Assembly: GCA_958295765.1 (NCBI GenBank)
Contig: CATQHB010000002.1
Span: 2,928,091 to 2,992,090 of the forward strand
Direction: 5' to 3'
DNA from: an uncultured Dehalococcoidia bacterium
GTDB taxonomy: Bacteria > Chloroflexota > Dehalococcoidia > Lucifugimonadales > UBA3495
Length of the DNA stretch: 64,000 bases
Every line of letters begins with the position of its first letter. The stretch's first letter is position 1. Positions 23,867 to 62,808 of the stretch are shown here, one piece after another. A program made the translations under genes and the position numbers. Under the pieces are notes generated by a model that ran no database searches, was not told the DNA's origin, and saw only the letters and a program-made list of their open reading frames with translations.

Positions 23867-24130
23867 CCGCTCATCCTGAGCCGGCCGCGCCAACCGCTCA
23901 TCCTGAGCCTGTCGAAGGAAGGGATAGGGGTGGTTCGACAAGCTCACCATGAGCGGTTTTAGTTATCCACCCGTCTCACCATGAGCGGATTTTGTTATGA
24001 ACCCGTCCCGCCCATCCTGCGCCGGCCGCGCCAACCGCTCATCCTGAGCTTGTCGAAGGAAGGGGATAGGGATGGTTCGACAAGCTCACCATGAGCGGAT
24101 TTTGTTATGAACCCGGCTCACCATGAGCGG
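23867..24130. repeat. REP-A cluster (two full elements plus extra half arms)
   Basis: Repeated CCGCTCATCCTGAGC..GTCGAAGGA..GGTTCGACAAGCTCACCATGAGCGG with CACCATGAGCGGATTTTGTTAT tails. Confidence 0.85.
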
Positions 24131-28287: not shown

Positions 28288-28536
28288 TGGTTCGACAGGC
28301 TCACCATGAGCGATATTGTTCTCACCATGAGCGGGTATTGTCGGTTTCCCTGCCTACCCGTCCCGCTCATCCTGAGCTTGTCGAAGGGCTGAATTGGGGT
28401 GGTTCGACAGGCTCACCATGAGCGATATTGTCGGTTGCCCTGCCTACCCGTCCCGCTCATCCTGAGCTTGTCGAAGGATGGTGTGCCGGTGGTTCGACAG
28501 GCTCACCATGAGCGATATTGTTCTCACCATGAGCGG
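28288..28536. repeat. REP-A cluster (about three elements)
   Basis: GGTTCGACAGGCTCACCATGAGCG / CCGCTCATCCTGAGCTTGTCGAAGG alternate three times. Confidence 0.85.
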
Positions 28537-37745: not shown

Positions 37746-38942
37746 TCACCGGCTTTCTTTCCAGGGGAATTCCACGTGCCAGAGATGGTTGTAACCGCCG
37801 CCCACCAGCACATACTGGCCGGTACTGACGCGGTCAATGGCATACTCCGGGAGAACCACCTCCACTATACATTTCCCGTCAAATATCTCGCCGCGCCAGC
37901 CAAATTGGAAATCCGGGTTGCCAAACCCGTAGCGCTGGCGATGGGCCGGCAGGTCGTTCACGTCAACCGGGTACAGGTGGAGAAAGAACGTCGCCTCAGT
38001 GTCCGCCGGGGCGCACCGCTCTTTAACGTAGGTCAGCGTGTTCTCATTCAGATATAGGTCAAAGTCGGAGCGGGCTATGGGTTCGTCGGATACCACCGCC
38101 GCGTATTCGGCGCGGGCCGCCGCTGCTCGATCGGCAGCTATGGGGTTGAAATACTGAAAAACGATCAACCCGATACTGCCGGCAATTACCAGGGAGCCGG
38201 TCAACAGCCACCAGGGAATCCGCCAGCCCGGCAGTTGCCAGCTACGGAGTGGCGCCGGCGCGATTGTCGCTAACCGTCCCGGCGCCTGAGCCAGCGCCAG
38301 CTCCAGAGCATAGAACAGGCAGCCGAGGCCGAACAGATACTCCCGTGTCTCCTGTATCCTGGGCCACCGGGCGATATTCTGGTCGTACACACTATGGTAG
38401 TTCACATAGGAGAGCGCAAAAACGAGGGCCAGGGTCGCCACCACCGCAATGACCAATTTGATTTGTCGCGAAAACAGGGCGAATATCAGCAATAGCAGCA
38501 GCAGCCCACTCTCCTTCAATACAGTAAAGTGTAATAAATCTCTGAGGCCCGATACTGAGTGATGGGAAAGTATCACCAGAAAGCCCAATGTCAGCAGGAT
38601 TGACGGGAAGGGAATCCCCAACAGCCGGTCTTTCCGAAAAAAGAAAGCCGCGCTGGTTGCCAGACACAGCAGAAACGCGCCGTTCCGGTAGATGGGGTCA
38701 AACCCTCGATCGCTGATATTGTGGACATTGAATTCTTTCTGATAATTCCAGGGCAGCAGGAAGTCGGGCGTCGCAAACCCGAAGATGCGCTGTCCCCAAC
38801 TGATTTCCTCGCCGGCGGCAAACACCATCGCCATACCGCCCAGCAGATAGACGCCGCGCCGGAAGAAGTTCGGCTCCAGCCAGGCCGTGCCGAACAGCAG
38901 AAAGCCGGCCAGGAGAAACCAGACCGCGGTGAGATACTCCAC
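37746..38942 (-). CDS. polytopic membrane protein with shared C-terminal ~105-aa domain (body downstream of a frameshifting C13 tract)
   Basis: 398 aa from GTG 38942. Multiple TM helices. The C-terminus FDLYLNENTLTYVKERCAPADTEATFFLHLYPVDVNDLP... is homologous to the C-termini of 39392..41668 and 41823..44120. Confidence 0.6.
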   Translation of the reverse strand: MEYLTAVWFLLAGFLLFGTAWLEPNFFRRGVYLLGGMAMVFAAGEEISWGQRIFGFATPDFLLPWNYQKEFNVHNISDRGFDPIYRNGAFLLCLATSAAFFFRKDRLLGIPFPSILLTLGFLVILSHHSVSGLRDLLHFTVLKESGLLLLLLIFALFSRQIKLVIAVVATLALVFALSYVNYHSVYDQNIARWPRIQETREYLFGLGCLFYALELALAQAPGRLATIAPAPLRSWQLPGWRIPWWLLTGSLVIAGSIGLIVFQYFNPIAADRAAAARAEYAAVVSDEPIARSDFDLYLNENTLTYVKERCAPADTEATFFLHLYPVDVNDLPAHRQRYGFGNPDFQFGWRGEIFDGKCIVEVVLPEYAIDRVSTGQYVLVGGGYNHLWHVEFPWKESR

Positions 38943-39102
38943 CCAGTAGTCTTCCAGGGTCAGATTACGGAAGGTCTCCGGGGCGGCGACGATGAGAAAG
39001 CTGAAGAAAAATACGTTCAGACTCAGCAGGAGGTAGGCAAGGACGGAAACCTTGTTGTCCAGACCCCTTGCGGGGGGGGGGGGGCAGAATTCTGGTGTTC
39101 AT
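38943..39102 (-). other. 5' segment of the same membrane-protein gene, out of register with the body
   Basis: ATG 39102 (MNTRIL) runs into C13. The body frame stays open from 39100 down to 38943 with no start codon and encodes a clean TM helix (VSVLAYLLLSLNVFFFSFLIVAA). A tract of 12 or 15 C would fuse ATG 39102 to the body. Confidence 0.6.
39072..39084. repeat. homopolymeric G13 (C13 on the coding strand)
   Basis: Counted directly: 9 + 4 G across two sequence blocks. It encodes the PPPP run after MNTRIL. Confidence 0.9.
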
Positions 39103-39310
39103 AGGATGATTCCGGCGTACCTGCTCCGCGCTGTTCCCTTGTTCCTGGCTCAGACATCCCGACTCCTGCCCTATGGCGCGGCTTGTTCTCATTATGTCGG
39201 CGCCAGGGCGATTGTCAAGGTTGAAAAGGCCGGGCAACCCGGACAACCTTACCAGGTCAACCCGGACAACCGCCCTATGGCAACCTAACAACCGTCGGCA
39301 ACCCAAGCAA

Positions 39311-39346
39311 CCGTCGTTCCGACGAAAGCCGGAATCCAGGAAATCC
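39311..39346. repeat. REP-D left half
   Basis: CCGTCGTTCCGACGAAAGCCGGAATCCAGGAAATCC with no right arm. Confidence 0.7.
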
Positions 39347-39391
39347 CCGGAAAAGAGCGGGCCGGCTACCGAGGGTTGGGGGCGGAAAGGT

Positions 39392-41668
39392 TCACCTGCT
39401 TTCGCTCAAGCGAATCTCCCCCTCCCACAAATGCTCGAAACCGCCTTCCACCAGCACGTACTGGCCGACGTAGATGGAGGTAATGGCGTATTCCGGGAGC
39501 GGCAGCGCCACCAGGCAGAAATCGCCGAATCTATTGCCATACTGGTCAAAGGTAAAATCCAGGCTGTCAAACCCGTATTGCTGGCGCGGTTCGGGCAGGT
39601 CTTTCACCTCAACCGGCTCCAGGTGCGCAAAGAACCGGGGATCCAGGTCGGCGGGGGCGCACGGCTCCTTTACGTAGATAAGTTGGTTTTCGACCAGATA
39701 TACGTCAAAGTCGGCGGAGAGCGCCGGTTGGTGGTCGCCGACCAAATCCGCCAGGTAATCGCTGGCCGTCATCGCTTTCCCCTGCACCGGCGGGGCGGCA
39801 TCGTGGGGCAGGACGGTGACCGCTACGCATAACCCGGTTTGCGTTTGCGTCCAGGCTTGGCGGTCGGTTGCGGCCCCGGCGCCGCTCCACTCCCACAATA
39901 TAAACTCTTCCGGCCGGCAATCCGGGGCAAACGCCTGCGCCAACCGCCCGTCCACCAGCAGCCCGACGCCGTCGGCCTGATAGTCAAAGTGCGGTTCCAT
40001 TCTTTCCCAGAACCAGGCGACGGGGTCAACAACTTCCGTTGCGCCGACCGGCCAGATCCTGAATTGGATTTCGCCGTTTACGGGGTGGAAAAATGACGGG
40101 CCTTTGTACAGAATCGCGTCCTCCTGATGGCCGACGCCTCGGAGGTTGGCAAAGTGGGTAATCCCATAACGGGGATAGAACTCGGTCTCGGTTCCCCGCT
40201 TTCGGGCGTGAAAATAGGCGTAGGAATTCACCAACCCGTCCAGGTTCACCACCGGAAAGCGGGAGAAATACCCGATAACCCCGGCGTCATACGACCCAAT
40301 CACGCTGCCCTCAGGCAGCGCCGCGTTCACCACCGGCGTACCCATATAGGAAGTAACATCCCAATTCCGCTCGGTTGACTGGCTTTTCCACTCAACCCAC
40401 CGGAACGGCCCGGTGAAATCCGCCCCGGTGAACAGCCAGACTGCGCCGACCACCAGGATAACCCCGCTCACCCCATTGGCCGCCAGCGCCGACCTCGGCC
40501 CAAGGAAACGGCGCAGAAAGTGAATGGCAACGTAACAAATCAGGGGAACGACCAGCGCCAGCATCAGGTACGCCGGGACGAAATACCAACCATAATCCCC
40601 GGCGTAACGATCCACCTGGAGGACGGTTTGCGCGAACTTGGCGATATGCCCCACCGCCAGGCTGAACCCGCCCACCAGAAAGGCCAGCAGCAGCCACTCC
40701 TCCCGGCTCCGGGAGCGGCGGCCCAGCCACCAAACCAGCAGCAGCAGCAGGAAACCGGCGCAGATTGCCAACGCCGTCAGCAGCGTCTCATTATGGAAAA
40801 CTTCGATTTGCCGGATCTCCTGGAAGTTCTGAGTCAGGCGGTAGCCGTCGGCGTTCTCCCACCGAGTTTGCGACCACCACCGCTTGCTGGCCCCGCTGAC
40901 CGGCACGATGCCGCCGAACACCAGCTTGTTGTAGGCAAAGTAGGCCAGGATGCCGGCAATTGCGCTGATTATTGGCGCAAAGGTTCGTGCCGGGGTAGAA
41001 ATCAGGGCAGCCCGCCAGGACACGTCGGCCGGCCGCTCCCGCCGCAACCACTCCATCAGCAGCAGCGCCGCCGTGGCGGTCAGCGATATGGCGATATACT
41101 CCAGGCGTACCCAGGGCAGGGCAAAGGCCACTACCGCCAGCGGCCAAGTCCACCGCTCCGGGTTGCGGGCATACAGCAGCAACGCCAGGAACAGCAGCCC
41201 CAGCATAAACAGCGCGGCGGCGGCCTCCAAGCCCACAAACAGGTTGCGCTGCTGATAGAGTATCGGCAGCAGGGCAAACAGCAGATACCAGGGCAGCCGG
41301 GCCAGCCGCGCCGCCACCGCAATTAACGCCACCGCCCCGGCAATGAGCATTATCTCCAGGGCTTTGATGGCAAACAGCGCCGTTTCCTTGTCAAACATCC
41401 AGTAGAAAGGGGTAATCAGCAGCAGCCAGATCGGATGGTAGCCATTAGTTCGGCTGATGCCGCCGTCAAAAGTGGAGAACCGCCCCTCGGAAAGGTGGTA
41501 GGCTATCTGAAAGTAGTAGAAAGAATCATCGCCGTTCACGTCCCGCAGCAGATTGACCAGGTCAAAGTTGACCAGCAGATACCCGGCAAAGGCGGCGCCA
41601 TAGGCCAGAATACCGCCAATAAACAAGGCAAACAGGGCGTGGCGCAAAGGTGCGGGCAGGGTGAACAT
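39392..41668 (-). CDS. GT-C-like polytopic membrane glycosyltransferase candidate with shared C-terminal domain (paralogue 1)
   Basis: 758 aa from ATG 41668 (MFTLPAPLRHALF). First-loop motif DDSFYYFQIAYHLSEGRFSTFDGGISRTNGYHPIW and more than 10 TM helices. The ORF-track extension to 42001 overlaps the next gene and repeats. Confidence 0.5.
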   Translation of the reverse strand: MFTLPAPLRHALFALFIGGILAYGAAFAGYLLVNFDLVNLLRDVNGDDSFYYFQIAYHLSEGRFSTFDGGISRTNGYHPIWLLLITPFYWMFDKETALFAIKALEIMLIAGAVALIAVAARLARLPWYLLFALLPILYQQRNLFVGLEAAAALFMLGLLFLALLLYARNPERWTWPLAVVAFALPWVRLEYIAISLTATAALLLMEWLRRERPADVSWRAALISTPARTFAPIISAIAGILAYFAYNKLVFGGIVPVSGASKRWWSQTRWENADGYRLTQNFQEIRQIEVFHNETLLTALAICAGFLLLLLVWWLGRRSRSREEWLLLAFLVGGFSLAVGHIAKFAQTVLQVDRYAGDYGWYFVPAYLMLALVVPLICYVAIHFLRRFLGPRSALAANGVSGVILVVGAVWLFTGADFTGPFRWVEWKSQSTERNWDVTSYMGTPVVNAALPEGSVIGSYDAGVIGYFSRFPVVNLDGLVNSYAYFHARKRGTETEFYPRYGITHFANLRGVGHQEDAILYKGPSFFHPVNGEIQFRIWPVGATEVVDPVAWFWERMEPHFDYQADGVGLLVDGRLAQAFAPDCRPEEFILWEWSGAGAATDRQAWTQTQTGLCVAVTVLPHDAAPPVQGKAMTASDYLADLVGDHQPALSADFDVYLVENQLIYVKEPCAPADLDPRFFAHLEPVEVKDLPEPRQQYGFDSLDFTFDQYGNRFGDFCLVALPLPEYAITSIYVGQYVLVEGGFEHLWEGEIRLSESR

Positions 41669-41674
41669 AGGGAA

Positions 41675-41683
41675 ATTGTAGCA
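41675..41683 (-). promoter_or_regulatory. extended -10 (TGCTACAAT) placed 6 nt before the ATG: leaderless-type promoter
   Basis: The minus strand reads ATATATGCTACAAT-ttccct-ATG. The same box occurs at 44129..44137 and 45951..45959. Confidence 0.5.
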
Positions 41684-41757
41684 TATATGGGGGGATTTTC
41701 CGCAGGGAGAGGCGGATAGGGTCAGGGCAACCCAGGCAACCGTCGGCAACACAAGAA

Positions 41758-41787
41758 CCGTCGTTCCGGCTTTCGCCGGAATCCAGG
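41758..41787. repeat. REP-D variant (rearranged core)
   Basis: CCGTCGTTCCGGCTTTCGCCGGAATCCAGG. Confidence 0.7.
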
Positions 41788-41822
41788 GTTTATGCTGCGA
41801 TTGCCCTGAGGGACGGGAATGT

Positions 41823-44120
41823 TCACCTGCTTTCTTTCCAAGAAAACTCCCCCTCCCATAAATGCTCGGAACCGTCCTCCACGGGCACATACTGGCCGGT
41901 GCGGATGGTGGCAATCTCATATTCCGGGAGCGGAACCATCGCCAGGCAGAGGTCGTCGAATTTATTGCCATGCCAGTCAAAGTTAAAGTCCAGGCTGTCA
42001 AACCCGTGTTGCTGGCGCAGTTCGGGCAGGTCCTTCACCTCAACCGGGTCCAGGTGTAGAAAGAACCAAGCCTCCAAGTCCGCCGGCTGGCACTGCTCCT
42101 TTGCGTAGATAAGTCGGTTTTCGACCAGATATACGTCAAAGTCGGTGGAGATTGCCGGTTGGCGGTCAACTATCAGGCTTGCCAAGTAATCGCTGGTCAT
42201 CATACCTTTTACTTGCACCGGTGGGATGGCATCGGGGGGCAGGATGATGACCGCTGCGCATAACCCGGTTTGCGTTTCCGTCCAGGCTTGGATGGCAGTG
42301 GTAGGCTCGGGGCCGCCCCAGTTCCATACTAGCAACTCTTCCGGCCGGCAACCCTGGGCAAATGCCTGGGCCAACCGCCCGTCCACCAGCAGCCCTACGC
42401 CGTCCGCTTGATAGTCAAAGTGCGGTTCCACCCTTCGCCAGAACCAAGCATCCGGGGCGGCTTCTTCGCTGGGCGGCGTACCGGCCGACCAGAAATTGAA
42501 CCTTCTTTCTTTAGAGGATTGTGGCCCCTCATAAAGCAGCTCACCATCAAAGCCCATTCTGGCAAGGTTGGCAAAGTGAGTTATTCCTAACTCTTGATAG
42601 ATCGGCCTGAATTCTTCCTTCCAAATGGCATATCCGTCCCGATCTGCGTTTGTCGCGTGAAAATAGTCATAAGAATTCACCACCCCGTCCAGGTTCACTA
42701 CCGGAAAGCGGGAGAAGTACCCGATAATCCCGGAGTCCCACGACCCAATCACGCTGCCCTCGGGCAGCGCCCGGTTCATAACCTGCGTCCCCCCATAAAA
42801 CACACCAAGCCATTCTTCGTGACTGACGGTTGAATCACTCCGCGATTCAATGAACCGGAAAGGCGCAGCGAAATCCGCCTTGGTCAGCAGAAAAACGGCG
42901 CTGACAACGACAATCCCGACGGCGAGGACATTGGCCGCCGGCGCCGACCTCGGCCCAATGAAACGGCGCAGAAAGTGAATGGCGACGTAACAGCCAAAGG
43001 GGACCGCCAGCGCCAACATTAAGTACGCCGGGACAAAATACCAGCCAAATGTCCCTTGGATAAAGGGATGCACTTGAAGGACGGTCTGGACGAACTTGGC
43101 GATATGCCCCACCGCCAGGCTGAACCCGCCCACCATAAAGGCCAGCAGCAGCCAGTCCTCCCGGCTCCGGGAGCGGTGGGCCAGCCACCCCACCAACAGG
43201 AAACCGATGCAGATTGCCAACGCCGTCAGCAGCGTCTCATTATTGAAAACATCGATTTGCCGGACCGCCTGGAGGTTCTGGAACAGGCTGTAGCCGCCTT
43301 CCTCCTCAAAGCGGACCTGCGACCACGCCTGCTTGCTGGCCCCGCTCACCGGCACGATGCCGCCGAATACCAGCTTGTTGTAGGCGAAGTAAGTCAGGAT
43401 GCCGGCAAGGGCGCTGATTATTGGCGCAAAGGTTCGGCGGGCCGGGATAGCAGTCAAGGCAGCGCGCCAGGACGCGCCGGGCGTCCGCTCTTGCCGCGAC
43501 CATTCCATCAGCAGCAGCGCCGCCGTGGCGGTCAGCGATATGGCAATATACTCCAGCCTGACCCAGGGCAGGGCAAAGGCTACGCCGGCCAGCGGCCAAG
43601 TCCACCGCTCCGGGTTCCGGGCGCAGAGCAGCAAGGCCAGGAACAACAGCCCCAGCATAAACAGCGCGGCGGCGGCCTCCAGCCCATGAAAGATGATGCG
43701 AGTTTGATAGAGTATCGGCAGCGGGGCAAACAACAGAATCCAGGGCAGACGGGCCAGCCGCGCCGCTACCGCGATAAGGGCTACCCCGCCGGCGATGAGC
43801 ATAATCTCCAGGGCTTTGATGGCAAACAGCGCCCCTTCCTTGTCAAATATCCAGTAGAAGGGAGTTATCAGCAGCAACCAGAGGGGATGGTAGCCGTTAG
43901 TTTGAGTGATGCCGCCGTCAAAGGTGGAGAACTTTCCCTCGGCCAGGTGATAGGCTATCTGGAAGTAGTAGAAAGCATCATCATGGGTCAGATCCCGCAG
44001 CAGGTTGATGACGTCGAACTTGACCAGCACATAACCGGCAAAGGCGGCGCCGTAGGCCAGAGTACCGCCAATAAACAAGACAAACAGGGCGTGGCGCAAA
44101 AGAGCAGTCAGGGTGAACAT
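41823..44120 (-). CDS. GT-C-like polytopic membrane glycosyltransferase candidate with shared C-terminal domain (paralogue 2)
   Basis: 765 aa from ATG 44120 (MFTLTALLRHALF). HDDAFYYFQIAYHLAEGKFSTFDGGITQTNGYHPLW. Collinear with paralogue 1 throughout. Confidence 0.5.
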   Translation of the reverse strand: MFTLTALLRHALFVLFIGGTLAYGAAFAGYVLVKFDVINLLRDLTHDDAFYYFQIAYHLAEGKFSTFDGGITQTNGYHPLWLLLITPFYWIFDKEGALFAIKALEIMLIAGGVALIAVAARLARLPWILLFAPLPILYQTRIIFHGLEAAAALFMLGLLFLALLLCARNPERWTWPLAGVAFALPWVRLEYIAISLTATAALLLMEWSRQERTPGASWRAALTAIPARRTFAPIISALAGILTYFAYNKLVFGGIVPVSGASKQAWSQVRFEEEGGYSLFQNLQAVRQIDVFNNETLLTALAICIGFLLVGWLAHRSRSREDWLLLAFMVGGFSLAVGHIAKFVQTVLQVHPFIQGTFGWYFVPAYLMLALAVPFGCYVAIHFLRRFIGPRSAPAANVLAVGIVVVSAVFLLTKADFAAPFRFIESRSDSTVSHEEWLGVFYGGTQVMNRALPEGSVIGSWDSGIIGYFSRFPVVNLDGVVNSYDYFHATNADRDGYAIWKEEFRPIYQELGITHFANLARMGFDGELLYEGPQSSKERRFNFWSAGTPPSEEAAPDAWFWRRVEPHFDYQADGVGLLVDGRLAQAFAQGCRPEELLVWNWGGPEPTTAIQAWTETQTGLCAAVIILPPDAIPPVQVKGMMTSDYLASLIVDRQPAISTDFDVYLVENRLIYAKEQCQPADLEAWFFLHLDPVEVKDLPELRQQHGFDSLDFNFDWHGNKFDDLCLAMVPLPEYEIATIRTGQYVPVEDGSEHLWEGEFSWKESR

Positions 44121-44128
44121 AGGGGGTA

Positions 44129-44137
44129 ATTGTAGCA
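44129..44137 (-). promoter_or_regulatory. extended -10 (TGCTACAAT) 8 nt before the ATG
   Basis: The minus strand reads TATATGCTACAAT-taccccct-ATG. Confidence 0.5.
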
Positions 44138-44245
44138 TATACGCCGGGCTTTTTCGCAGGGAAACGCCTGAAGGGTCAGGGCAACCGTCGGTAACCCGGG
44201 GGCCGGGAATGTTCCCTTGTTTTCCTGGTAGTCGGCGGCCCGCGC

Positions 44246-45829
44246 CTAGCGAAAATGTTTGACGGCTTCCCTGGCGTTCGCAATCAGCGATACGTGGAGT
44301 TCTCCCGCAACAATGACCGGCTCAACCGGAACCGGCTCGCCCAACGCCTCTAATTCCTCCGGTGATACGCGCTCATGGACCAGGTAGATTCTATTGGGGG
44401 CCTCCGGGAGCGCGCGGACTAAACCTCCCATCTCCCGGAGACAATCTGCAAAATCAGTCCAGCAGCCTTTCCTGCCATAGTGGTAGTTGCTCGGTTTTTC
44501 CGCTTGATGGAACTTTATCGTATGGGTGGCGTAACGGGTTACAAAAACCAGGTCTCCGGTTTCCCCATTCTCTTGCAGATAGGCGAGCACGGCCTGGGCG
44601 TTGTGGGGTTTCTCATAGGGACTATCGCGCAGCAGGTCGCCCACCCCGGCGATGACGATGGCGCCGGCCGCCGCGACGGTCAGCGCCGGCGCCAGCCACC
44701 CCCGCCGCGTCAGCCCGGCCAGACTTTTCGCCGCCCAATGGATGGCGACGCCGGCGGCCAGAAAGATGACCGGCCCCAGATAGATGTTCTGGCGACTCCC
44801 GCCCAGGGGATAAAAGGTCAGCAGGGCGGCGATAAGGGCGATACCCACAGCCAGCAGGGCCAGGATTGCAACGGGATTGAGTCGCCGCCGTTTCAGAGAT
44901 ACCACCAGCAGCAGGGCCAAGGCGACCAGCGCCGCTACCGCCACCACTTCCGGCAAGTGATAGGTCAATAAACGCCAAACCCGCGTAATCGAAAAATCCA
45001 GGAGCGCCGCCGGCTCAGCGAAGCCTCCCTGATAGCGATTATCCGGGTTGACAGTCGGCCCATAGCCCCAACGCTCCCACTGATAGCTCAAAGTAAGCAC
45101 GTAGGTCAGGGCGCACCCGACCATCAGGCACGCCTCCGGCCAGACCAGGTCGGCGCGCGCCTTGAGCCAATTAAGAACCCGGTTTAGGAACGAACTCCCT
45201 GCCGGCACCGCCAAAGTCGGGGAGCGGGGTAGAACTATCGCCGCGACCAGTACGGCGCCGGCGAACAGCACCAAGCCGTACTGGAGCAGCGGGGCCACGA
45301 ACAGCGCCACGCAGAGCAGGACTTTCTTGCCGTCCCGCAGATACCATAGCAACCCGGCAATCAGCAGCACCGCCAGCAATGCGTCAATGGAGTATTCCCG
45401 CGCATCCTGGGCGTGATAGATTGCGGCCACGGAAAGCGTCGCCAGCAGGGCCGCCAGAAACGCGGCCCACCGGTTCACTCCCAGGCGGGGCAGCAAGAAT
45501 AACAGCACCGCCACGGTCAGGACGCTGGCCGCCGCCGGCAGAACGCGGATGCTGAAGGTCGAGATGCCCGGTTTCTGCACCGCCCACAACGCCAGGGGAT
45601 ACAGGATGGGCGAGGAGTTCCGGCTGCGGGTAATGGGTAATACCTCAGAGAAGGCGCCGCTCACATTATCGGAGGCAATGGCTTCGTCATACCACACCGA
45701 CTGCCTCGGCAGGTCATAAAAGCGCAGCGCCACCGCCACCAGCAGCAGGCCCACGAACAACCCCGCCAGGGCCAGCCGTTCCGGGGAAACGCGCCCGCTG
45801 CGGGAAAGGACGGGAAGGTTAATTTTCAT
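44246..45829 (-). CDS. glycosyltransferase family 39 / ArnT-PMT-like membrane protein
   Basis: 527 aa from ATG 45829 (MKINLPVLS). ALRFYDLPRQSVWYDEAIAS is the W-DE-A first-loop motif typical of the PMT_2/ArnT type, with many TM helices. The ORF-track extension to 46093 is repeat-derived. Confidence 0.6.
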   Translation of the reverse strand: MKINLPVLSRSGRVSPERLALAGLFVGLLLVAVALRFYDLPRQSVWYDEAIASDNVSGAFSEVLPITRSRNSSPILYPLALWAVQKPGISTFSIRVLPAAASVLTVAVLLFLLPRLGVNRWAAFLAALLATLSVAAIYHAQDAREYSIDALLAVLLIAGLLWYLRDGKKVLLCVALFVAPLLQYGLVLFAGAVLVAAIVLPRSPTLAVPAGSSFLNRVLNWLKARADLVWPEACLMVGCALTYVLTLSYQWERWGYGPTVNPDNRYQGGFAEPAALLDFSITRVWRLLTYHLPEVVAVAALVALALLLVVSLKRRRLNPVAILALLAVGIALIAALLTFYPLGGSRQNIYLGPVIFLAAGVAIHWAAKSLAGLTRRGWLAPALTVAAAGAIVIAGVGDLLRDSPYEKPHNAQAVLAYLQENGETGDLVFVTRYATHTIKFHQAEKPSNYHYGRKGCWTDFADCLREMGGLVRALPEAPNRIYLVHERVSPEELEALGEPVPVEPVIVAGELHVSLIANAREAVKHFR

Positions 45830-45942
45830 AAATCCCCCGTCAAGCGCCCCGCGCCCCCGGCAAAGGCGGCGCCATAGGCCAGCATACCGCCAATAAACAA
45901 AACAAACAGGGCGTAGCGCAAAGGTGCGGGCAGGGTGAACAT
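45826..45942 (-). pseudogene. 38-codon upstream ORF, a relic 5' end of a third GT-C paralogue with its promoter
   Basis: MFTLPAPLRYALFVLFIGGMLAYGAAFAGGAGRLTGDL*. The first ~29 codons and ~60 nt of upstream sequence are near-identical to the 5' ends at 41668 and 44120. Its TGA overlaps ATG 45829 (TTATGA). Confidence 0.65.
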
Positions 45943-45950
45943 AGGGGGTT

Positions 45951-45959
45951 ATTGTAGCA
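45951..45959 (-). promoter_or_regulatory. extended -10 (TGCTACAAT) 8 nt before the relic ATG
   Basis: The minus strand reads ATATATGCTACAAT-aaccccct-ATG. Confidence 0.45.
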
Positions 45960-46052
45960 TATATGGGGGGCTTTTCCCGCAGAGGCGCAGAGTAACCGGG
46001 GCCGATACAAAGTCTGCGCCAAATCCAGAATCCGCTCCGCCAAATCCAGCAT

Positions 46053-46077
46053 CCGCTCATGGTGAGCTTGTCGAACC
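46053..46077. repeat. REP-A half element
   Basis: CCGCTCATGGTGAGCTTGTCGAACC. Confidence 0.75.
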
Positions 46078-46126
46078 ACGCCCCCGGTGTCATTGAAAGG
46101 TCAATGTCATCCCGAGAAAGGTTAAT

Positions 46127-46321: not shown

Positions 46322-46350
46322 TTGACAACGACATTCCCTATTGTTAGACT
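46322..46350 (+). promoter_or_regulatory. sigma-70-like promoter upstream of rhodanese 1
   Basis: TTGACA (46322-46327), 17 nt, TAGACT (46345-46350). Confidence 0.5.
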
Positions 46351-46420
46351 GGGCGCAACAAAACCCATCAGGAACTTTCTGTCTGAAGGGGCAAATTGAA
46401 GTGTCCTGATTAACTATACT

Positions 46421-46452
46421 TCAGGGGTGCTTATGCACCCCTGAAACTTTTT
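46421..46452 (+). terminator. intrinsic-terminator-like hairpin inside the rhodanese-1 leader
   Basis: TCAGGGGTGC-ttat-GCACCCCTGA followed by AACTTTTT. It ends about 30 nt before ATG 46484. There is no plus-strand gene upstream. Confidence 0.5.
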
Positions 46453-46483
46453 GTGCAAGTTGTAATAACGAAAAGCAGGCTTT

Positions 46484-47368
46484 ATGGTTACTGAAACAAG
46501 TTTTGCCCGCCCGGAGTACCTGGTTGACCCGGCGGGTCTGCAAGAACGATTGGGCCGGCCGGACGGCGCTAATCTGGTGGTGGTGGACCTGGACGCCGCG
46601 GCCGGCTACGCGCGGGGCCACGTCCCCGGAGCGGTTCACCTGCCGGATAACTACGAGCGGAACCCGGCTACCGGCTGGGTCAACACCCTGCCCCCGGATA
46701 AGTTCGCCGCCGTCTGCCAGAGCCTGGGCATCGGCGACGCTACCCAAGTGGTGGCCTACGACAACAACCTGAGCCTCTACGCCGCCCGTTTCTGGTGGAC
46801 GCTGAACTACTACGGCCATACCAACGTCCAAGTGCTGGACGGGGGCTGGCGGCGCTGGGCTGCCGAGGGCGGCCCCGTCAGTTTTGACCCCCCGGCGGCC
46901 CCCGCTGTGGCCCCCACCGGCGCCGAATTTACGCCCCGGATTGACCCGTCCTTGCTGGTCGGGTTTGACGAAGTTAAGGCCGGCTGCCTCCTGGAGGGCG
47001 CGGCCAGCGCCGGTAGTGCAGATACGGTTATCTGGGACACCCGCAGCGCCGGCGAGTATTCCGGCGCCGTCAACCGGGGCAATCAGCGGGCCGGACACAT
47101 CGCCGGGGCGGTGCATCTGGATTGGCTGGATTTGATGGATCGGGAAAGCCACCGTTTCAAGCCGGCGGGAGAAGTCCGGCGCATCCTCAACGCCAAAGGC
47201 ATCACTCCCGACAAGGCCGTCTTTGCCTATTGACAGGCCGGCCTCCGTGCGGCGCACGGCGTCTTTCTGCTGAACCTGCTGGGCTATCACCGGGCCAGCA
47301 ACTACGACGCGTCCATGTTCGAGTGGGCCAACCGGGAGGACGCGCCGATGGAAGGGGGGGACAATTAA
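46484..47368 (+). CDS. two-domain rhodanese sulfurtransferase with TGA (probable selenocysteine) at the catalytic position, copy 1
   Basis: ORF-track 46484..47233 stops at TGA 47231-47233. The same frame continues QAGLRAAHGVFLLNLLGYHRASNYDASMFEWANRED... to TAA 47366-47368, supplying the missing active-site loop [Cys]-Q-x-G-x-R-A and C-terminus. Confidence 0.7.
47245..47259 (+). promoter_or_regulatory. candidate SECIS hairpin, copy 1
   Basis: CCGTGC-GGC-GCACGG begins 11 nt after the TGA. It is identical in copy 2 although the flanking nucleotides differ. Confidence 0.45.
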
Positions 47369-47384
47369 GAATTAGGAATTAAGG
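47363..47384. repeat. REP-F AT-rich element (overlaps the rhodanese-1 stop codon)
   Basis: AATTAAGAATTAGGAATTAAGG. Confidence 0.8.
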
Positions 47385-47444
47385 TGGAATCTGATGATGA
47401 CGGTTGCTTGGCCCTGCAATGCCCTTCGGCGCATCGACGCCGGC

Positions 47445-47476
47445 AATTCTTAATTCCTAATTCCTAATTCTTAATT
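47445..47476. repeat. REP-F AT-rich element (just upstream of the rhodanese-2 RBS)
   Basis: AATTCTTAATTCCTAATTCCTAATTCTTAATT, inverted relative to 47363..47384. Confidence 0.8.
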
Positions 47477-47492
47477 ATAAAAAGGGGGTTTT

Positions 47493-48323
47493 ATGACTAC
47501 TGGAGCAGGGTTTGCCTACCCGGAGTACCTGGTGGATGCGGAGTGGGTGGCGGGCCACCTGGATGACCCGGACGTGGTGGTGGTGGACGGCGACGTGGAG
47601 GCCGGCTACCTGCGGGGCCATATCCCCGGCGCGGCGCTGGTGCCGGACAACTATGAGAAAGACCCGGATACCGGCCGGGTTCACATCCTGCCGCCGGACA
47701 AGTTCGCCGCAATGTGCCAGAACCTGGGCATCGGCGACGCAACGCTGGTGGTGGCTTATGACAACAATCAGAGCCTCTACGCCGCGCGCCTCTGGTGGGC
47801 GTTGAATTACTACGGCCATAGCAACGTCAAGGTGCTGGACGGGGGCTGGCGGCGCTGGGTTGCCGAGGGCCGCCCCATTGCCTTTGACCGCCCGGCGCCC
47901 CGGGCCGGCGCCGCCTTCACCCCCCAAATCGACGACTCTCTGATGGTCAAGGTGGACGAGTTGAAGGAGGCTTGCAGTCTCTCCGACTCCCTGATTTGGG
48001 ACGTGCGCAGCGACGGCGAATATACCGGGGCCAATGACCGGGGCAATAAGCGGGCCGGCCACATCCCCGGCGCGGTTCACCTGGAATGGTTCAACGTGAT
48101 GGAGCGGGACAGCCACCGTTTCAAGCCGGCGGAGGAAATCCGGCAGATGCTCAACGCCAAAGGCATCACCCCGGACAAGGCGGTCTTTGCCTATTGACAG
48201 GGCGGCATCCGTGCGGCGCACGGCGCATTTCTGCTCAAGCTGTTGGGCTACGACCGGGCCAAAAACTACGACGCCTCAATGGGCGAGTGGGCCAACCGGG
48301 AGGATACGCCCCTGGAGGTTTAG
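47493..48323 (+). CDS. two-domain rhodanese sulfurtransferase with TGA (probable selenocysteine) at the catalytic position, copy 2
   Basis: ORF-track 47493..48197 stops at TGA 48195-48197. The frame continues QGGIRAAHGAFLLKLLGYDRAKNYDASMGEWANREDTPLEV to TAG 48321-48323. Confidence 0.7.
48209..48223 (+). promoter_or_regulatory. candidate SECIS hairpin, copy 2
   Basis: CCGTGC-GGC-GCACGG begins 11 nt after the TGA. Confidence 0.45.
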
Positions 48324-48371: not shown

Positions 48372-48597
48372 GGTATTCTCAACAGGTGTTGGTGTTCTGG
48401 TCGGAATACTTCAACTGCCGGTAGGGGCGGGTTTGTAACCCGCCCGGCCCGCAACGGCAGAATCATTAGAATCATTTGGGTAACGGAGCCATTGTATCCG
48501 ACACATCCTTGTACCGGAACCTGGGCGGGTTATAAACCCGCCCCTACCATCCACCGAAACCGGGCCGGCAGGATTGTCAACACCGGTTGAGAATACC
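48372..48597. repeat. REP-B full-length MITE-like element
   Basis: Outer GGTATTCTCAACAGGTGTTGG ... CAACACCGGTTGAGAATACC arms; inner pair at 48420..48548. Confidence 0.85.
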
Positions 48598-48605
48598 AGC
48601 AATAC

Positions 48606-48731
48606 CCGCTCATGGTGGAACAATATCGCTCATGGTGCGCACGATACCCGCTTATGGTGCGCACAACATCCGCTCATGGTGAGCCGGTCGAACCATCCCA
48701 ATTCCGTCCTTCGACAAGCTCAGGGTGAGCG
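48606..48731. repeat. REP-A cluster
   Basis: Three CGCT[CT]ATGGTG half arms, then a full element ending CTTCGACAAGCTCAGGGTGAGCGG. Confidence 0.8.
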
Positions 48732-48847
48732 GGACGGGTAGGACATAGCCATCGCAGCATAAACCCGTCGTTCCTGCAAGAAAAGCCCCCGGATACATCC
48801 GGGGGCTTTCTGCATAGTCCGGGATGGGGCCGCGCCGGCCCCGGGGG

Positions 48848-53750: not shown

Positions 53751-53790
53751 AATTGCCAATTGATAATTCTTAATTCCTAATTCCTAATTC
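53751..53790. repeat. REP-F AT-rich element (abuts the stop of the Ddn-like gene)
   Basis: AATTGCCAATTGATAATTCTTAATTCCTAATTCCTAATTC. Confidence 0.8.
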
Positions 53791-54658: not shown

Positions 54659-56116
54659 TCACCCGGCCCCGGTCGCCGGGCCTCGGCTGGGCCGCCCCCG
54701 CAGGGCCGACAGTACCATTGCCACCAGCAGCATCCCGGTCATGGTCAGGTAGGTGTAGCGCAGCCCTAAAGTGAAGGCTTGCCCGACGCCGCCATTGCCC
54801 TGCTGCACCGCCGCCAGGCTGGGTTCGTAGCCCATAGACCCCATGGTCGCGGTAACTATCGCCGTGGCAATCGCTACGCTGGTTACGTGGCCCGAATTGC
54901 GTACCAGGTTCAGGAAGGCCGATATTACCCCGAAACTTTCCCGCTCCACCGAGCTTAACACCGAACTGACGTTGGGCGAGTAGAACAGCCCCATGCCGCA
55001 GCTTTGCAGAATCAACGCCGGGATCACCAGATACAGGGTAGAGTCGGCGGTCAGCCGGGAAAAGATGAACAGGCTGATGGCCGACAGCAGCAGTCCGCCC
55101 ACCGTAAAGGGCCGCCAGCCGAACTTGTCGGACAACCGCCCGCTGACCGGCCCCAAGACCAGCATACACACCGCCCCCGGCACCAGTACCAGGCCGGCGG
55201 CGGCGGGGCTGTAGCCGAGAACCCGCTGCAAGTAAAAGGGCGTCAGGAAAAATATGGACGTTCCGCCCAGGAAGGTCAGGAACCCGGCGGAAACGCCAAA
55301 GGAGAAAACCATCCGCTTGAAGTGGCGCAACTCCAGCATGGGCGCCGGCGTCCGCAGTTCCCACCAGATAAAGCCGGCCAGCAACGCCGCCGCGCCGACC
55401 AATGCCCCCAGGATGAAGGGGGAAGTCCAGCCGTAGCGGTTGGCGCTGGTCAGGGCCAGCAGGAAGACCAGCAGCGCCCCGGTGGACAGGGCGGCGCCCA
55501 GCCAGTCGAACCCGGCCCGCCGCTGCCCCGCCTCCGGGCGCCGCTCGGTCAGCACGGCCAGGCTCAGGCCAATGGCAAGGGTCATCAGCGGGACGTTGAC
55601 GAAGAACACCGACCGCCAGCCGAAGAAATCCACCAGAAAGCCGCCCAATGCCGGGCCGACGATGGCCCCGCTGCCGACGACCGCCATCATAAAGCCGATG
55701 GCCTTGCCCCGTTCATTGGCGGGAAAGGCGGCGGCGATTATCGCCATTCCGGTGCCTTGGGTCATCGCCGCCCCGATACCCTGGGCTACCCGGGAGCCAA
55801 TCAGCCAGCCCAGGCTGGTGGACATCCCGGAGGACAGGGCGAACAGGGCAAAGACCAGGGAGCCGAGGATATAGACCCGTTTCAGGCCGATAATGTCCGA
55901 CAGCCGGCCCATAGGCAGCAGCAGGGCGCTGATGGTCAAAATGTAGCTGATGACCACCCACTGCACCGTCGGCAGGTCGCTGACGAAGTAGCTGGAAATG
56001 GGGGGCAGCGCCACGTTGACGCTCACCTGGTCGGCCACCGACGCAAAGGTGCCCACCGCCACGGCCCCGAAGGCCCACCACTTATAGTTGGTTCTTTGCG
56101 CTATCGTTGCAATCAT
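54659..56116 (-). CDS. MFS transporter, DHA2 (EmrB/QacA-like, 14-TMS) type
   Basis: 485 aa. The LPMGRLSDIIGLKR motif sits between TM2 and TM3, with about 14 hydrophobic segments. Confidence 0.8.
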   Translation of the reverse strand: MIATIAQRTNYKWWAFGAVAVGTFASVADQVSVNVALPPISSYFVSDLPTVQWVVISYILTISALLLPMGRLSDIIGLKRVYILGSLVFALFALSSGMSTSLGWLIGSRVAQGIGAAMTQGTGMAIIAAAFPANERGKAIGFMMAVVGSGAIVGPALGGFLVDFFGWRSVFFVNVPLMTLAIGLSLAVLTERRPEAGQRRAGFDWLGAALSTGALLVFLLALTSANRYGWTSPFILGALVGAAALLAGFIWWELRTPAPMLELRHFKRMVFSFGVSAGFLTFLGGTSIFFLTPFYLQRVLGYSPAAAGLVLVPGAVCMLVLGPVSGRLSDKFGWRPFTVGGLLLSAISLFIFSRLTADSTLYLVIPALILQSCGMGLFYSPNVSSVLSSVERESFGVISAFLNLVRNSGHVTSVAIATAIVTATMGSMGYEPSLAAVQQGNGGVGQAFTLGLRYTYLTMTGMLLVAMVLSALRGRPSRGPATGAG

Positions 56117-56120
56117 CTTT

Positions 56121-56187
56121 TTAATTAGGAATTAGGAATTAAGAATTACTAATTGATAGATGACCGGCAGTTCTTAATTCCTGATTC
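56121..56187. repeat. REP-F AT-rich element pair (starts 5 nt upstream of the MFS start codon)
   Basis: TTAATTAGGAATTAGGAATTAAGAATTACTAATTGA ... TTCTTAATTCCTGATTC, an internal inverted pair. Confidence 0.8.
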
Positions 56188-56583: not shown

Positions 56584-56620
56584 TAATTCCTAATTCCTAA
56601 TTCTTAATTCTTAATTTAAT
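56584..56620. repeat. REP-F AT-rich element (overlaps the stop codon of MFS 56616..57935)
   Basis: TAATTCCTAATTCCTAATTCTTAATTCTTAATTTAAT. Confidence 0.8.
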
Positions 56621-62076: not shown

Positions 62077-62808
62077 CCGCTCATCCTGAGCCTGTCGAAG
62101 GATGCCGGCAAGGTAAGGGGGCGTGGTTCGACAAGCTCACCATGAGCGGGCTTGTTCTTGTGAGCCGAATTCTGGTGAGCGGATTTTATTACCACTCCCC
62201 GCTCATCCTGAGCCTGTCGAAGGATGGCCGGAAGGTAAGGGGCGTGGTTCGACAAGCTCACCATGAGCGGACTTCGTTCTCCGGTATATCCGGTTAAGCC
62301 ATTGCTGGTATCCCGGCTAAACCTCGGTCAGGTTGGGCGACTCCTCCACTCCCCGCTCATTCTGAGCCTGTCGAAGGATGCCGGCAAGGTAAGGGGGCGT
62401 GGTTCGACAAGCTCACCATGAGCGGACTTAATTCTCTCCCCGCTCATTCTGAGCCTGTCGAAGGATGCCGGCAAGGTAAGGGGGCGTGGTTCGACAAGCT
62501 CACCATGAGCGGACTTAATTCTCTCCCCGCTCATTCTGAGCCTGTCGAAGGATGCCGGCAAGGTAAGGGGGCGTGGTTCGACAAGCTCACCATGAGCGGA
62601 CTTAATTCTCTCCCCGCTCATTCTGAGCCTGTCGAAGGATGCCGGCAAGGTAAGGGGGCGTGGTTCGACAAGCTCACCATGAGCGGACTTGTTCTTGTGA
62701 GCCGAATTCTGGTGAGCGGATTTTATTATCACTCCCCGCTCATCCTGAGCTTATCGAAGGATGCCGGCAAGGTAAGGTGGCGTGGTTCGACAAGCTCACC
62801 ATGAGCGG
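62077..62808. repeat. REP-A super-cluster: 87-bp tandem array (4 units, 62354..62701) nested in a ~538-bp direct duplication
   Basis: Unit starts at 62354, 62441, 62528 and 62615. The flanking segments ~62100-62340 and ~62639-62880 are near-identical. Confidence 0.9.

Follow-up and report, generated by a model that had tools for sequence, protein, structure and literature searches.

A tandem pair of Dehalococcoidia rhodanese genes with a predicted selenocysteine codon at the catalytic position

Two adjacent genes of an uncultured Dehalococcoidia bacterium, designated A and B, were examined in a window of 64,000 nucleotides (contig CATQHB010000002.1 of assembly GCA_958295765.1). A reading of this DNA that relied on the sequence only had proposed that each gene carries a TGA codon where the codon for the catalytic cysteine of a rhodanese belongs. 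Our analysis, which also rests on sequence comparison, indicates that A and B very probably encode rhodaneses of the thiosulfate/3-mercaptopyruvate sulfurtransferase type (TST type) in which selenocysteine (Sec) replaces the catalytic Cys.

UGA at the catalytic position of two rhodanese genes

The open reading frames (ORFs) called at positions 46484-47233 and 47493-48197 of the window both finish with KAVFAY followed by TGA. Past this codon, the frame of gene A continues with QAGLRAAHGVFLLNLLGYHRASNYDASMFEWANREDAPMEGGDN up to a TAA codon at 47366-47368, and that of gene B with QGGIRAAHGAFLLKLLGYDRAKNYDASMGEWANREDTPLEV up to a TAG codon at 48321-48323. The downstream portions comprise 44 and 41 codons, respectively, and NYDASMGEWANR is an example of the predicted C-terminal peptide of the read-through product. 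All positions and read-through peptides reported by the sequence-only reading, which had both frames open to 47368 and 48323, were recovered. With C substituted for U in the queries, the Pfam family Rhodanese (PF00581) matched each protein twice (E=7e-30 for A and E=7.7e-34 for B), in agreement with the two-domain architecture initially proposed. No NCBIfam equivalog scored above its cut-off for either protein, the best being PRK11493 (3-mercaptopyruvate sulfurtransferase) with 130 bits for B and 101 bits for A versus 250, and NCBIfam holds no dedicated selenoprotein model for the rhodanese family.

Gene B aligned end to end with rhodaneses of solved structure, namely 1uar (E=1.5e-47, the alignment spanning residues 6-274), 1e0c (E=2.1e-38), and the mycobacterial protein 3hwi. 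In this structure-database sequence alignment, residue X235 of B coincided with the catalytic Cys of all three proteins, and the active-site loops were in register (Y-C-R-I-A-E-R-S and H-C-Q-T-H-H-R-S versus Y-X-Q-G-G-I-R-A in B). The alignment thus bears out two proposals made from the DNA alone: the TGA stands at the catalytic-Cys codon, and the segment that follows it corresponds to the active-site loop and the last helix. Since this segment holds the active-site loop, a product terminated at the TGA would be devoid of a catalytic center. The loops also match the TST-type pattern C-[R/Q]-x-G-x-[R/T], with U-Q-G-G-I-R in B and U-Q-A-G-L-R in A, which may hint at the substrate subtype of both enzymes.

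A scan of one genome per species retrieved 80 related loci from metagenome-assembled genomes of Dehalococcoidia, Chloroflexota, and the SAR202 cluster. These loci were 64-89% identical, and every match continued through the stop. The 101 genes from these 80 other species and the two window genes form a set of 103 (81 B-type and 22 A-type), in which TGA occupied the site in 103/103 cases and TGC or TGT in none. The best 120 database homologues of gene B (69-98% identity, 83-85% query coverage) were 232-237 residues long, save for a few with insertions or longer N-termini, and also stopped at the TGA position; the public records MYC29924.1 and MBM3943124.1, both named 'sulfurtransferase', contain 234 residues each. 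A-type orthologues with the TGA were present in 21 genomes besides that of the window, and the order A then B was conserved in 22 genomes with a gap of 27-1092 nt between the genes. Identity between A and B (about 0.60) is below that of B-type genes from distant clades (0.685), and therefore the duplication is old or A evolves faster. The tandem pair would thus descend from an old duplication, or include a faster-evolving A, with the recoding signal kept in both copies. Together, these comparisons suggest that the UGA is fixed as the Sec codon of this rhodanese in at least 80 Dehalococcoidia/SAR202-type species.

The identical hairpins described by the sequence-only reading are indeed present 11 nt after each TGA (Table 1). 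Their predicted minimum free energy (MFE) is -8.0 kcal/mol, with a pair probability of about 0.9 in context. We compared them with the model of the bacterial selenocysteine insertion sequence (SECIS) in the form given by Figure 2 of PMC13188914. The model calls for an apical loop of 3-9 nt (here GGC, 3 nt), an upper stem of 4-16 bp (here 6 bp), a G in the first two loop positions (present), a distance of 16-37 nt between the UGA and the apical loop (here 17 nt), and an MFE of at most -7.5 kcal/mol. The resemblance to a bacterial SECIS, which the sequence-only reading had put forward, therefore extends to the published values for loop, stem, G, distance, and MFE.

Probable selenocysteine decoding in the lineage

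All loci were scanned for a second selenoprotein gene, the criteria being an in-frame TGA flanked on each side by a coding signature and accompanied by a SECIS-like hairpin. A gene of the UGSC family, a catalogued selenoprotein family, was found in four rhodanese-bearing loci (L052, L056, L072, and L081), 3-5 kb from the rhodanese gene. Its product reads ...CDVMIHATAE-U-GSCTSCSVHD..., with the TGA at the U of UGSC. The protein matched Pfam PF24696 (152.7 bits, residues 11-177), the domain extending across the TGA, and scored 111 bits against NCBIfam NF041046, 'UGSC family (seleno)protein', which is under the cut-off of 125. In the three loci in which the hairpin was read (L052, L072, and L081), the UGA is followed by 12 nt and by UCGUGCA-GUG-UGCACGA. 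The UGSC and rhodanese genes belong to unrelated protein families, reside on the same Dehalococcoidia chromosomes, and share a TGA at U and a downstream hairpin (at 12 versus 11 nt) with a common stem core, CGUGC...GCACG, as expected if one SelB reads both.

A further UGSC gene was found elsewhere on the chromosome of locus L050. The best 120 UGSC homologues were 99-106 residues long, nearly all 99-100, and covered about half of the query, indicating that they too end at the TGA; automated calling yields two fragments of this gene, of 99 and 65-69 residues. Two of these 120 homologues lie on chromosomes (3,420,922 bp and 4,599,130 bp) that also carry the Sec-rhodanese. No sel genes were found beside the UGSC genes in five further loci, and the window itself contains no UGSC copy, the evidence coming from relatives of the window's species. 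The UGSC genes would thus support Sec decoding in the lineage. SelA, SelB, SelD, and tRNA-Sec are presumably encoded in the source genome. The corresponding SelA, SelB, and SelD COGs were detected in each of the five SAR202 bins obtained from a sponge (PMC5649159, Table S4), tRNA-Sec has been reported in Chloroflexi (PMC5389517), with an 8/4 form described for this phylum, and Chloroflexi selenoproteins were counted in 2006 (PMC1794560).

Decoding by the same type of machinery could also insert Cys at the UGA, through a tRNA-Cys that resembles tRNA-Sec (UCA anticodon), a SelB-type factor, and the same hairpin. Such a tRNA-Cys(UCA), selC*, is known together with an adjacent second selB copy in Deltaproteobacteria (PMC5389517), and the UGA, the hairpin, and the conserved frame would look identical in this case. 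However, the selC* genes described in PMC5389517 come from Deltaproteobacteria and a few other contigs, not from Chloroflexi, and all of the selC*-containing genomes possess a complete Sec machinery. A plain TGC codon would seem to serve the insertion of Cys just as well, yet none of the 103 genes contains TGC at the site. UGSC, a recognized selenoprotein family, is additionally encoded on the same chromosomes as the rhodanese genes. Taken together, these observations make Cys decoding very unlikely.

Selection on the downstream frame and on the hairpin

Selection was estimated from Nei-Gojobori counts on a codon alignment. For B-type genes, pN/pS was 0.33 before the UGA and 0.24 after it (0.23 if the hairpin codons were omitted); for A-type genes, the ratio was 0.32 on both sides. 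The frame after the UGA was open in 103/103 genes from 81 genomes, with no further stops, and synonymous divergence in the flanks (pS of about 0.58) was near saturation. Purifying selection after the UGA indicates that the downstream frame is translated, and a frame that stays open in 103 genes despite this divergence is not unselected sequence. The shared TGA, the absence of extra stops, and the strong constraint are also unlike a pseudogene, as the sequence-only reading had argued. That reading had named orthologues ending at the same TGA without a conserved downstream frame as a finding that would speak against it; the frame was conserved in all 101 genes of the relatives.

These data bear directly on the possibility of genuine termination at the TGA, in which case the genes would encode truncated dead rhodanese-like proteins (249 and 234 residues), or be pseudogenes, followed by a left-over frame. 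All public gene calls that we saw do finish at the TGA, including MYC29924.1 and MBM3943124.1, and some termination at the UGA is expected in any Sec gene. In contrast, a true stop does not account for 41-44 downstream codons that are open in every gene of the set under a constraint (pN/pS of 0.24-0.32) no weaker than upstream, and that supply precisely what the truncated proteins lack, namely the last helix and the active-site loop. Unselected sequence would have gained stops or frameshifts at such a level of synonymous divergence. Termination as the sole fate of these mRNAs is therefore highly improbable.

The hairpin region is conserved at the level of codons. In B-type genes, the site is preceded by TAT (81/81) and followed by CAG at codon +1 (78/81), the TGA itself being present in 81/81. 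Within the hairpin, a single codon was used at each position, ATC at +4 (81/81), CGT at +5 (81/81), GCG at +6 (72/72), GCG at +7 (81/81), and CAC at +8 (72/72), whereas nearby fourfold-degenerate codons displayed codon entropies of 1-1.8 bits. CGT was rare at another conserved Arg codon (-18), where it was found in 4/74 genes. Synonymous divergence was accordingly 0.000 in codons +4 to +8 versus about 0.58 in the flanks. The six pairs of the stem were formed in 100% of 100 distinct 75-nt segments, versus 18-64% for slid-partner controls. Pair 5 was G-C in 91 segments and U-A in nine, the nine belonging to a single clade; the other five pairs were invariant. In the U-A variant, CCGUUC-GGC-GAACGG, the peptide changes from RAAHG to RSANG, so that two amino acid changes preserve one pair; this swap was probably a single evolutionary event. 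RNAalifold predicted solely the 6-bp hairpin. A longer lower stem, pairing alignment columns 19-21 with 40-42, was considered and rejected since it was not conserved (37-91% paired).

A database search with the 69 residues surrounding the site returned only three proteins that span it. Two of these, P0289 (72% identity) and P0291 (60%), are Cys forms with a TGC codon, the peptide Y-C-QGGIRAAH, and TAC before the site; their Arg codon, CGG or CGC, disrupts the U-A pair of the stem. The third, P0290, has TGA in its DNA, which was printed as W by the source, apparently under genetic code 4. Its genome of origin is AT-rich (nearby codons are GTA TTA GCA TTA), and CGT GCG GCG CAC GG is nonetheless kept. 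Overall, the synonymous codons that form the hairpin were present in 104/104 TGA genes versus 0/2 TGC genes. Zero synonymous change, the compensatory pair, and the broken stem of the TGC forms indicate a constraint at the RNA level, and the hairpin thus appears to be a signal tied to the UGA beyond coding constraint.

The sequence-only reading had warned that coding constraint might explain part of this conservation. In its strong form, the hairpin would be a mere by-product of the peptide (I/L)RAAHG rather than a recoding signal, whether Sec or another residue is inserted. The hairpin is in fact built of conserved active-site codons, five of the six pairs never vary and are hence uninformative, and its fold energy is close to that of shuffled sequence. 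Conservation of the peptide cannot, however, explain the invariant third positions of CGT, GCG, GCG, and CAC, and the Arg codon is CGG or CGC in the two Cys forms that encode this peptide. The stem survives the coupled replacement of A by S and of H by N, and its core recurs at a similar distance (12 nt versus 11 nt) in the unrelated UGSC gene of this lineage. These features answer the caveat and leave the by-product explanation with a very slim chance. Genome-wide reassignment of TGA to sense (code 4 or code 25 type), which is hinted at only by the W in P0290, has a negligible probability because the W reflects the translation table chosen by the source whereas the DNA reads TGA, TGA terminates 16/39 of the longest ORFs of the window, including the Pfam-supported major facilitator superfamily (MFS) transporter gene at 54659-56116, and no other window gene has a credible in-frame TGA. 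UGA is thus an ordinary stop elsewhere in the window.

Several observations weigh against the insertion of Sec. Single-sequence fold energies gave a z-score of about 0 relative to dinucleotide shuffles in this 61% GC DNA, although such folding is uninformative in GC-rich DNA. Covariation is limited to one pair and probably to one event, the U-A variant of nine relatives reaches only -5.8 kcal/mol on its own, and the Cys-form control consists of two sequences. No tRNA-Sec was found in the 64-kb window, which contains one tRNA (Val), and neither tRNA-Sec nor selA, selB, or selD was found within about 1.7 Mb of related loci. A tblastn search of the window and all retrieved loci (1.75 Mb) with E. 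coli SelA, SelB, and SelD returned nothing below E=0.09. ARAGORN reported a tRNA-SeC with a tca anticodon at L050:23-117, which we rejected as a false positive: Rfam returned neither a tRNA nor a tRNA-Sec at the gathering score or even at E<=1, and the segment lies inside an esterase-like ORF, starts with CAAGG, and folds no better than shuffles. This false call could mislead searches for the Sec machinery.

On balance, SelB-dependent insertion of Sec in place of the catalytic Cys of a TST-type rhodanese is highly likely. In the mechanism that we propose, the hairpin (15 nt, 6 bp, GGC loop) located 11 nt past the UGA would recruit SelB-GTP-Sec-tRNA(Sec), and the ribosome arriving at the UGA would insert Sec instead of terminating. 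Translation would then resume for 44 codons in A and 41 codons in B, giving the loop U-Q-[A/G]-G-[L/I]-R-A and the last helix. Ordinary rhodaneses form a cysteine persulfide intermediate. In A and B, the transferred sulfur (or selenium) would be carried on Se as a selenenyl-sulfide-type intermediate. Incorporation of selenium, this chemistry, and the nature of the physiological substrate are what we infer for the two enzymes.

Most selenoprotein families are dominated by Cys forms. Here, the UGA is kept in 103 genes, in both paralogues, in at least 80 species, and down to about 64% identity. It is conceivable, though rather doubtful, that the rhodanese of this lineage depends on selenium and that the lineage uses a compact SECIS consensus of its own (CGUGC-loop-GCACG, located 11-12 nt past the UGA). 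If so, the enzyme may perform chemistry beyond the reach of Cys, for example as a selenenyl-sulfide carrier in organosulfur, thiosulfate, or selenium trafficking, and a SECIS consensus common to unrelated genes could be used to mine the remaining selenoproteome of the lineage.

Surroundings of the pair and comparison with known systems

Table 1. Positions of the predicted genes and recoding elements and of other features. Plain numbers refer to the window; L numbers designate related loci.
Feature	Position	Strand	Description
Gene A, two-domain rhodanese selenoprotein (predicted)	46484..47368	+	294 aa; U is residue 250; loop U-Q-A-G-L-R-A
Sec codon (UGA) of gene A (predicted)	47231..47233	+	TGA in 22/22 A-type genes; aligned with the catalytic Cys
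SECIS hairpin of gene A (predicted)	47245..47259	+	CCGUGC-GGC-GCACGG; 11 nt past the UGA
Gene B, two-domain rhodanese selenoprotein (predicted)	47493..48323	+	276 aa; U is residue 235; loop U-Q-G-G-I-R-A
Sec codon (UGA) of gene B (predicted)	48195..48197	+	TGA in 81/81 B-type genes; TAT before it in 81/81; C always next
SECIS hairpin of gene B (predicted)	48209..48223	+	CCGUGC-GGC-GCACGG; 11 nt past the UGA
UGSC gene	L081:13385-13927 (TGA 13682); L052 TGA 14007; L072 TGA 13676; L056 about 15439; also L085-L091		
Cys relatives and AT-rich TGA relative	L092:3-266; L093:703-975; L094:155-517		DNA read directly
AT-rich inverted repeat of AATTAGG/AATTAAG heptads, A-B intergenic	47363..47476	.	inverted pairs I6 and I7; overlaps the gene A stop codon
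CCGCTCATGGTGAGC repeat copies (examples)	46047-46080; 48600-48732; 23867-24130; 28299-28536; 62077-62808		periodic array at 62077-62808

No conserved operon partners of the rhodanese gene were found among the 80 related loci, in which the neighbors vary. The sole partly conserved neighbor, present in 37/80 of these loci, encodes a protein of about 700 residues without a Pfam family and is located about 3 kb upstream on the opposite strand (for example L033:1908-4025, minus, and L001:3349-5466). In the window, four large consecutive ORFs (398, 869, 771, and 615 residues; 37746-46093, minus strand) lie directly upstream of the pair, none of which matched Pfam at E<=0.001. In 20/21 related genomes (L002-L029), gene A is preceded by a TTGCCC-N17/18-TACAAT promoter that ends 8-10 nt before the ATG, a proximity that suggests a leaderless mRNA in these relatives. 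This promoter is lacking in the window (features noted at 46322-46350 and 46420-46454), which instead has an 11-bp hairpin with a U-run at 46420-46454. The 5' region of gene A in the window (46463-46532) resembles that of gene B (47472-47541).

Between A and B, AATTAGG/AATTAAG heptads (13 matches versus 0.01 expected in this 61% GC genome) form an inverted repeat of 19-21 nt, and comparable tracts are located at three further gene ends (53757-53789, 56123-56155, and 56584-56616). The inverted repeat does not belong to the recoding signal and lacks conservation in the relatives, in which the A-B gap varies from 27 to 1092 nt. An intergenic repeat containing CCGCTCATGGTGAGC, which looks like an element of the repetitive extragenic palindromic (REP) type, is present in 51 copies in the 64 kb (0.19 expected), which are frequently grouped in arrays. 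The rhodanese pair lies between copies of opposite orientation, and many spurious small ORFs result from the repeat. Downstream of gene B, 26-nt inverted copies of GGTAGGGGCGGGTTTGTAACCCGCCC are located at 48420-48445 and 48523-48548, each being itself a hairpin; a similar element, GGGGCGGGTTT..AAACCCGCCCC, occurs upstream of A-type genes in L011-L015. Finally, locus L076 has a TGA at position 207 (minus strand) within an ABC-transporter-like C-terminus, ...GTHAELLER-TGA-GIYTRLYAEQ.... The sequence has a coding signature on either side of this TGA, and a small hairpin follows. The codon does not occupy a Cys position and might reflect an assembly error or represent a further site of recoding.

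Truncation has consequences for public annotation. All public records that we saw, of about 234 residues for the rhodanese and 99 residues for UGSC, are cut at the UGA, and the former are devoid of the active site. SAR202-type bacteria abound in the ocean and in sponges. Since the records are truncated and are not rescued by NCBIfam, these enzymes are overlooked or misinterpreted in metabolic reconstructions of such bacteria, and the use of selenium is underestimated. The 15-nt hairpin, its 11-nt spacing, and the core shared with UGSC provide a lineage-specific SECIS pattern for genome-wide mining of selenoproteins, and the Sec-rhodanese offers a natural test of the effect of selenium on persulfide-transfer chemistry. 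Current understanding is not overturned by these predictions.

The rhodaneses of Thermus thermophilus (1uar) and Azotobacter vinelandii (RhdA, 1e0c) share with gene B the same two-domain fold, as judged by sequence, with the active-site loop in register. They differ by the use of Cys and a persulfide where A and B have the UGA and, as predicted, Sec. Regarding the recoding signal, the closest comparison is with fdhF of E. coli, in which the in-frame UGA at codon 140 is followed by CACGGCCCAUC (11 nt) and GGUUGCAGGUCUGCACC. The A and B hairpins resemble this element by the C after the UGA, the 11-nt spacing, the short stem-loop, and the G at the start of the loop. In contrast, GGUUGCAGGUCUGCACC has a bulged U and a larger loop, whereas the A/B hairpin consists of a perfect 6-bp stem and a GGC triloop with no conserved lower stem. 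The minimal E. coli SECIS was reportedly defined by Liu et al. in 1998 as a 17-nt upper stem-loop located 11 nt from the UGA, a definition checked here only against the fdhF sequence.

A Sec-containing rhodanese is not without precedent. In 2005, 15 new selenoprotein families were predicted from the Sargasso Sea, among them the 'rhodanese-related sulfurtransferase' (COG2897), with three sequences and a SECIS figure (PMC1088965). The same family, as cd01449, was represented in the Global Ocean Sampling (GOS) data by eight Sec sequences versus 3,367 Cys homologues (PMC2398784). A 2026 catalogue lists a PF00581 form with the motif UxxG (PMC13188914), and the family also appears in a 2022 catalogue of prokaryotic selenoproteins. 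The sequence-only reading was therefore right in stating that Sec rhodaneses had been predicted in marine metagenomes and that the class is rare rather than unprecedented. The Sargasso/GOS family and A/B have in common the two-domain TST-type architecture, the UxxG motif, predicted Sec in place of the catalytic Cys, a predicted downstream SECIS, and many Cys homologues. Genes A and B display this motif as U-Q-A-G and U-Q-G-G, respectively, on a PF00581 protein. Their assignment to the known rhodanese selenoprotein family is well supported by motif and architecture; published example sequences of that family include AACY01016424, MCY3690685.1, and MBM9537886.1.

What the present analysis appears to add is the placement of the Sec-rhodanese family in a Dehalococcoidia/SAR202-type lineage, an apparently fixed Sec in 80 or more species together with a conserved tandem pair, a minimal invariant predicted SECIS whose core is common to UGSC, and the finding that public annotation systematically truncates the family's members. 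Relative to the few sequences published for the Sargasso/GOS family in the accessible portions of those papers, the A/B set thus extends to at least 80 species, with a tandem arrangement in 22 genomes, an invariant predicted SECIS, and an assigned lineage.

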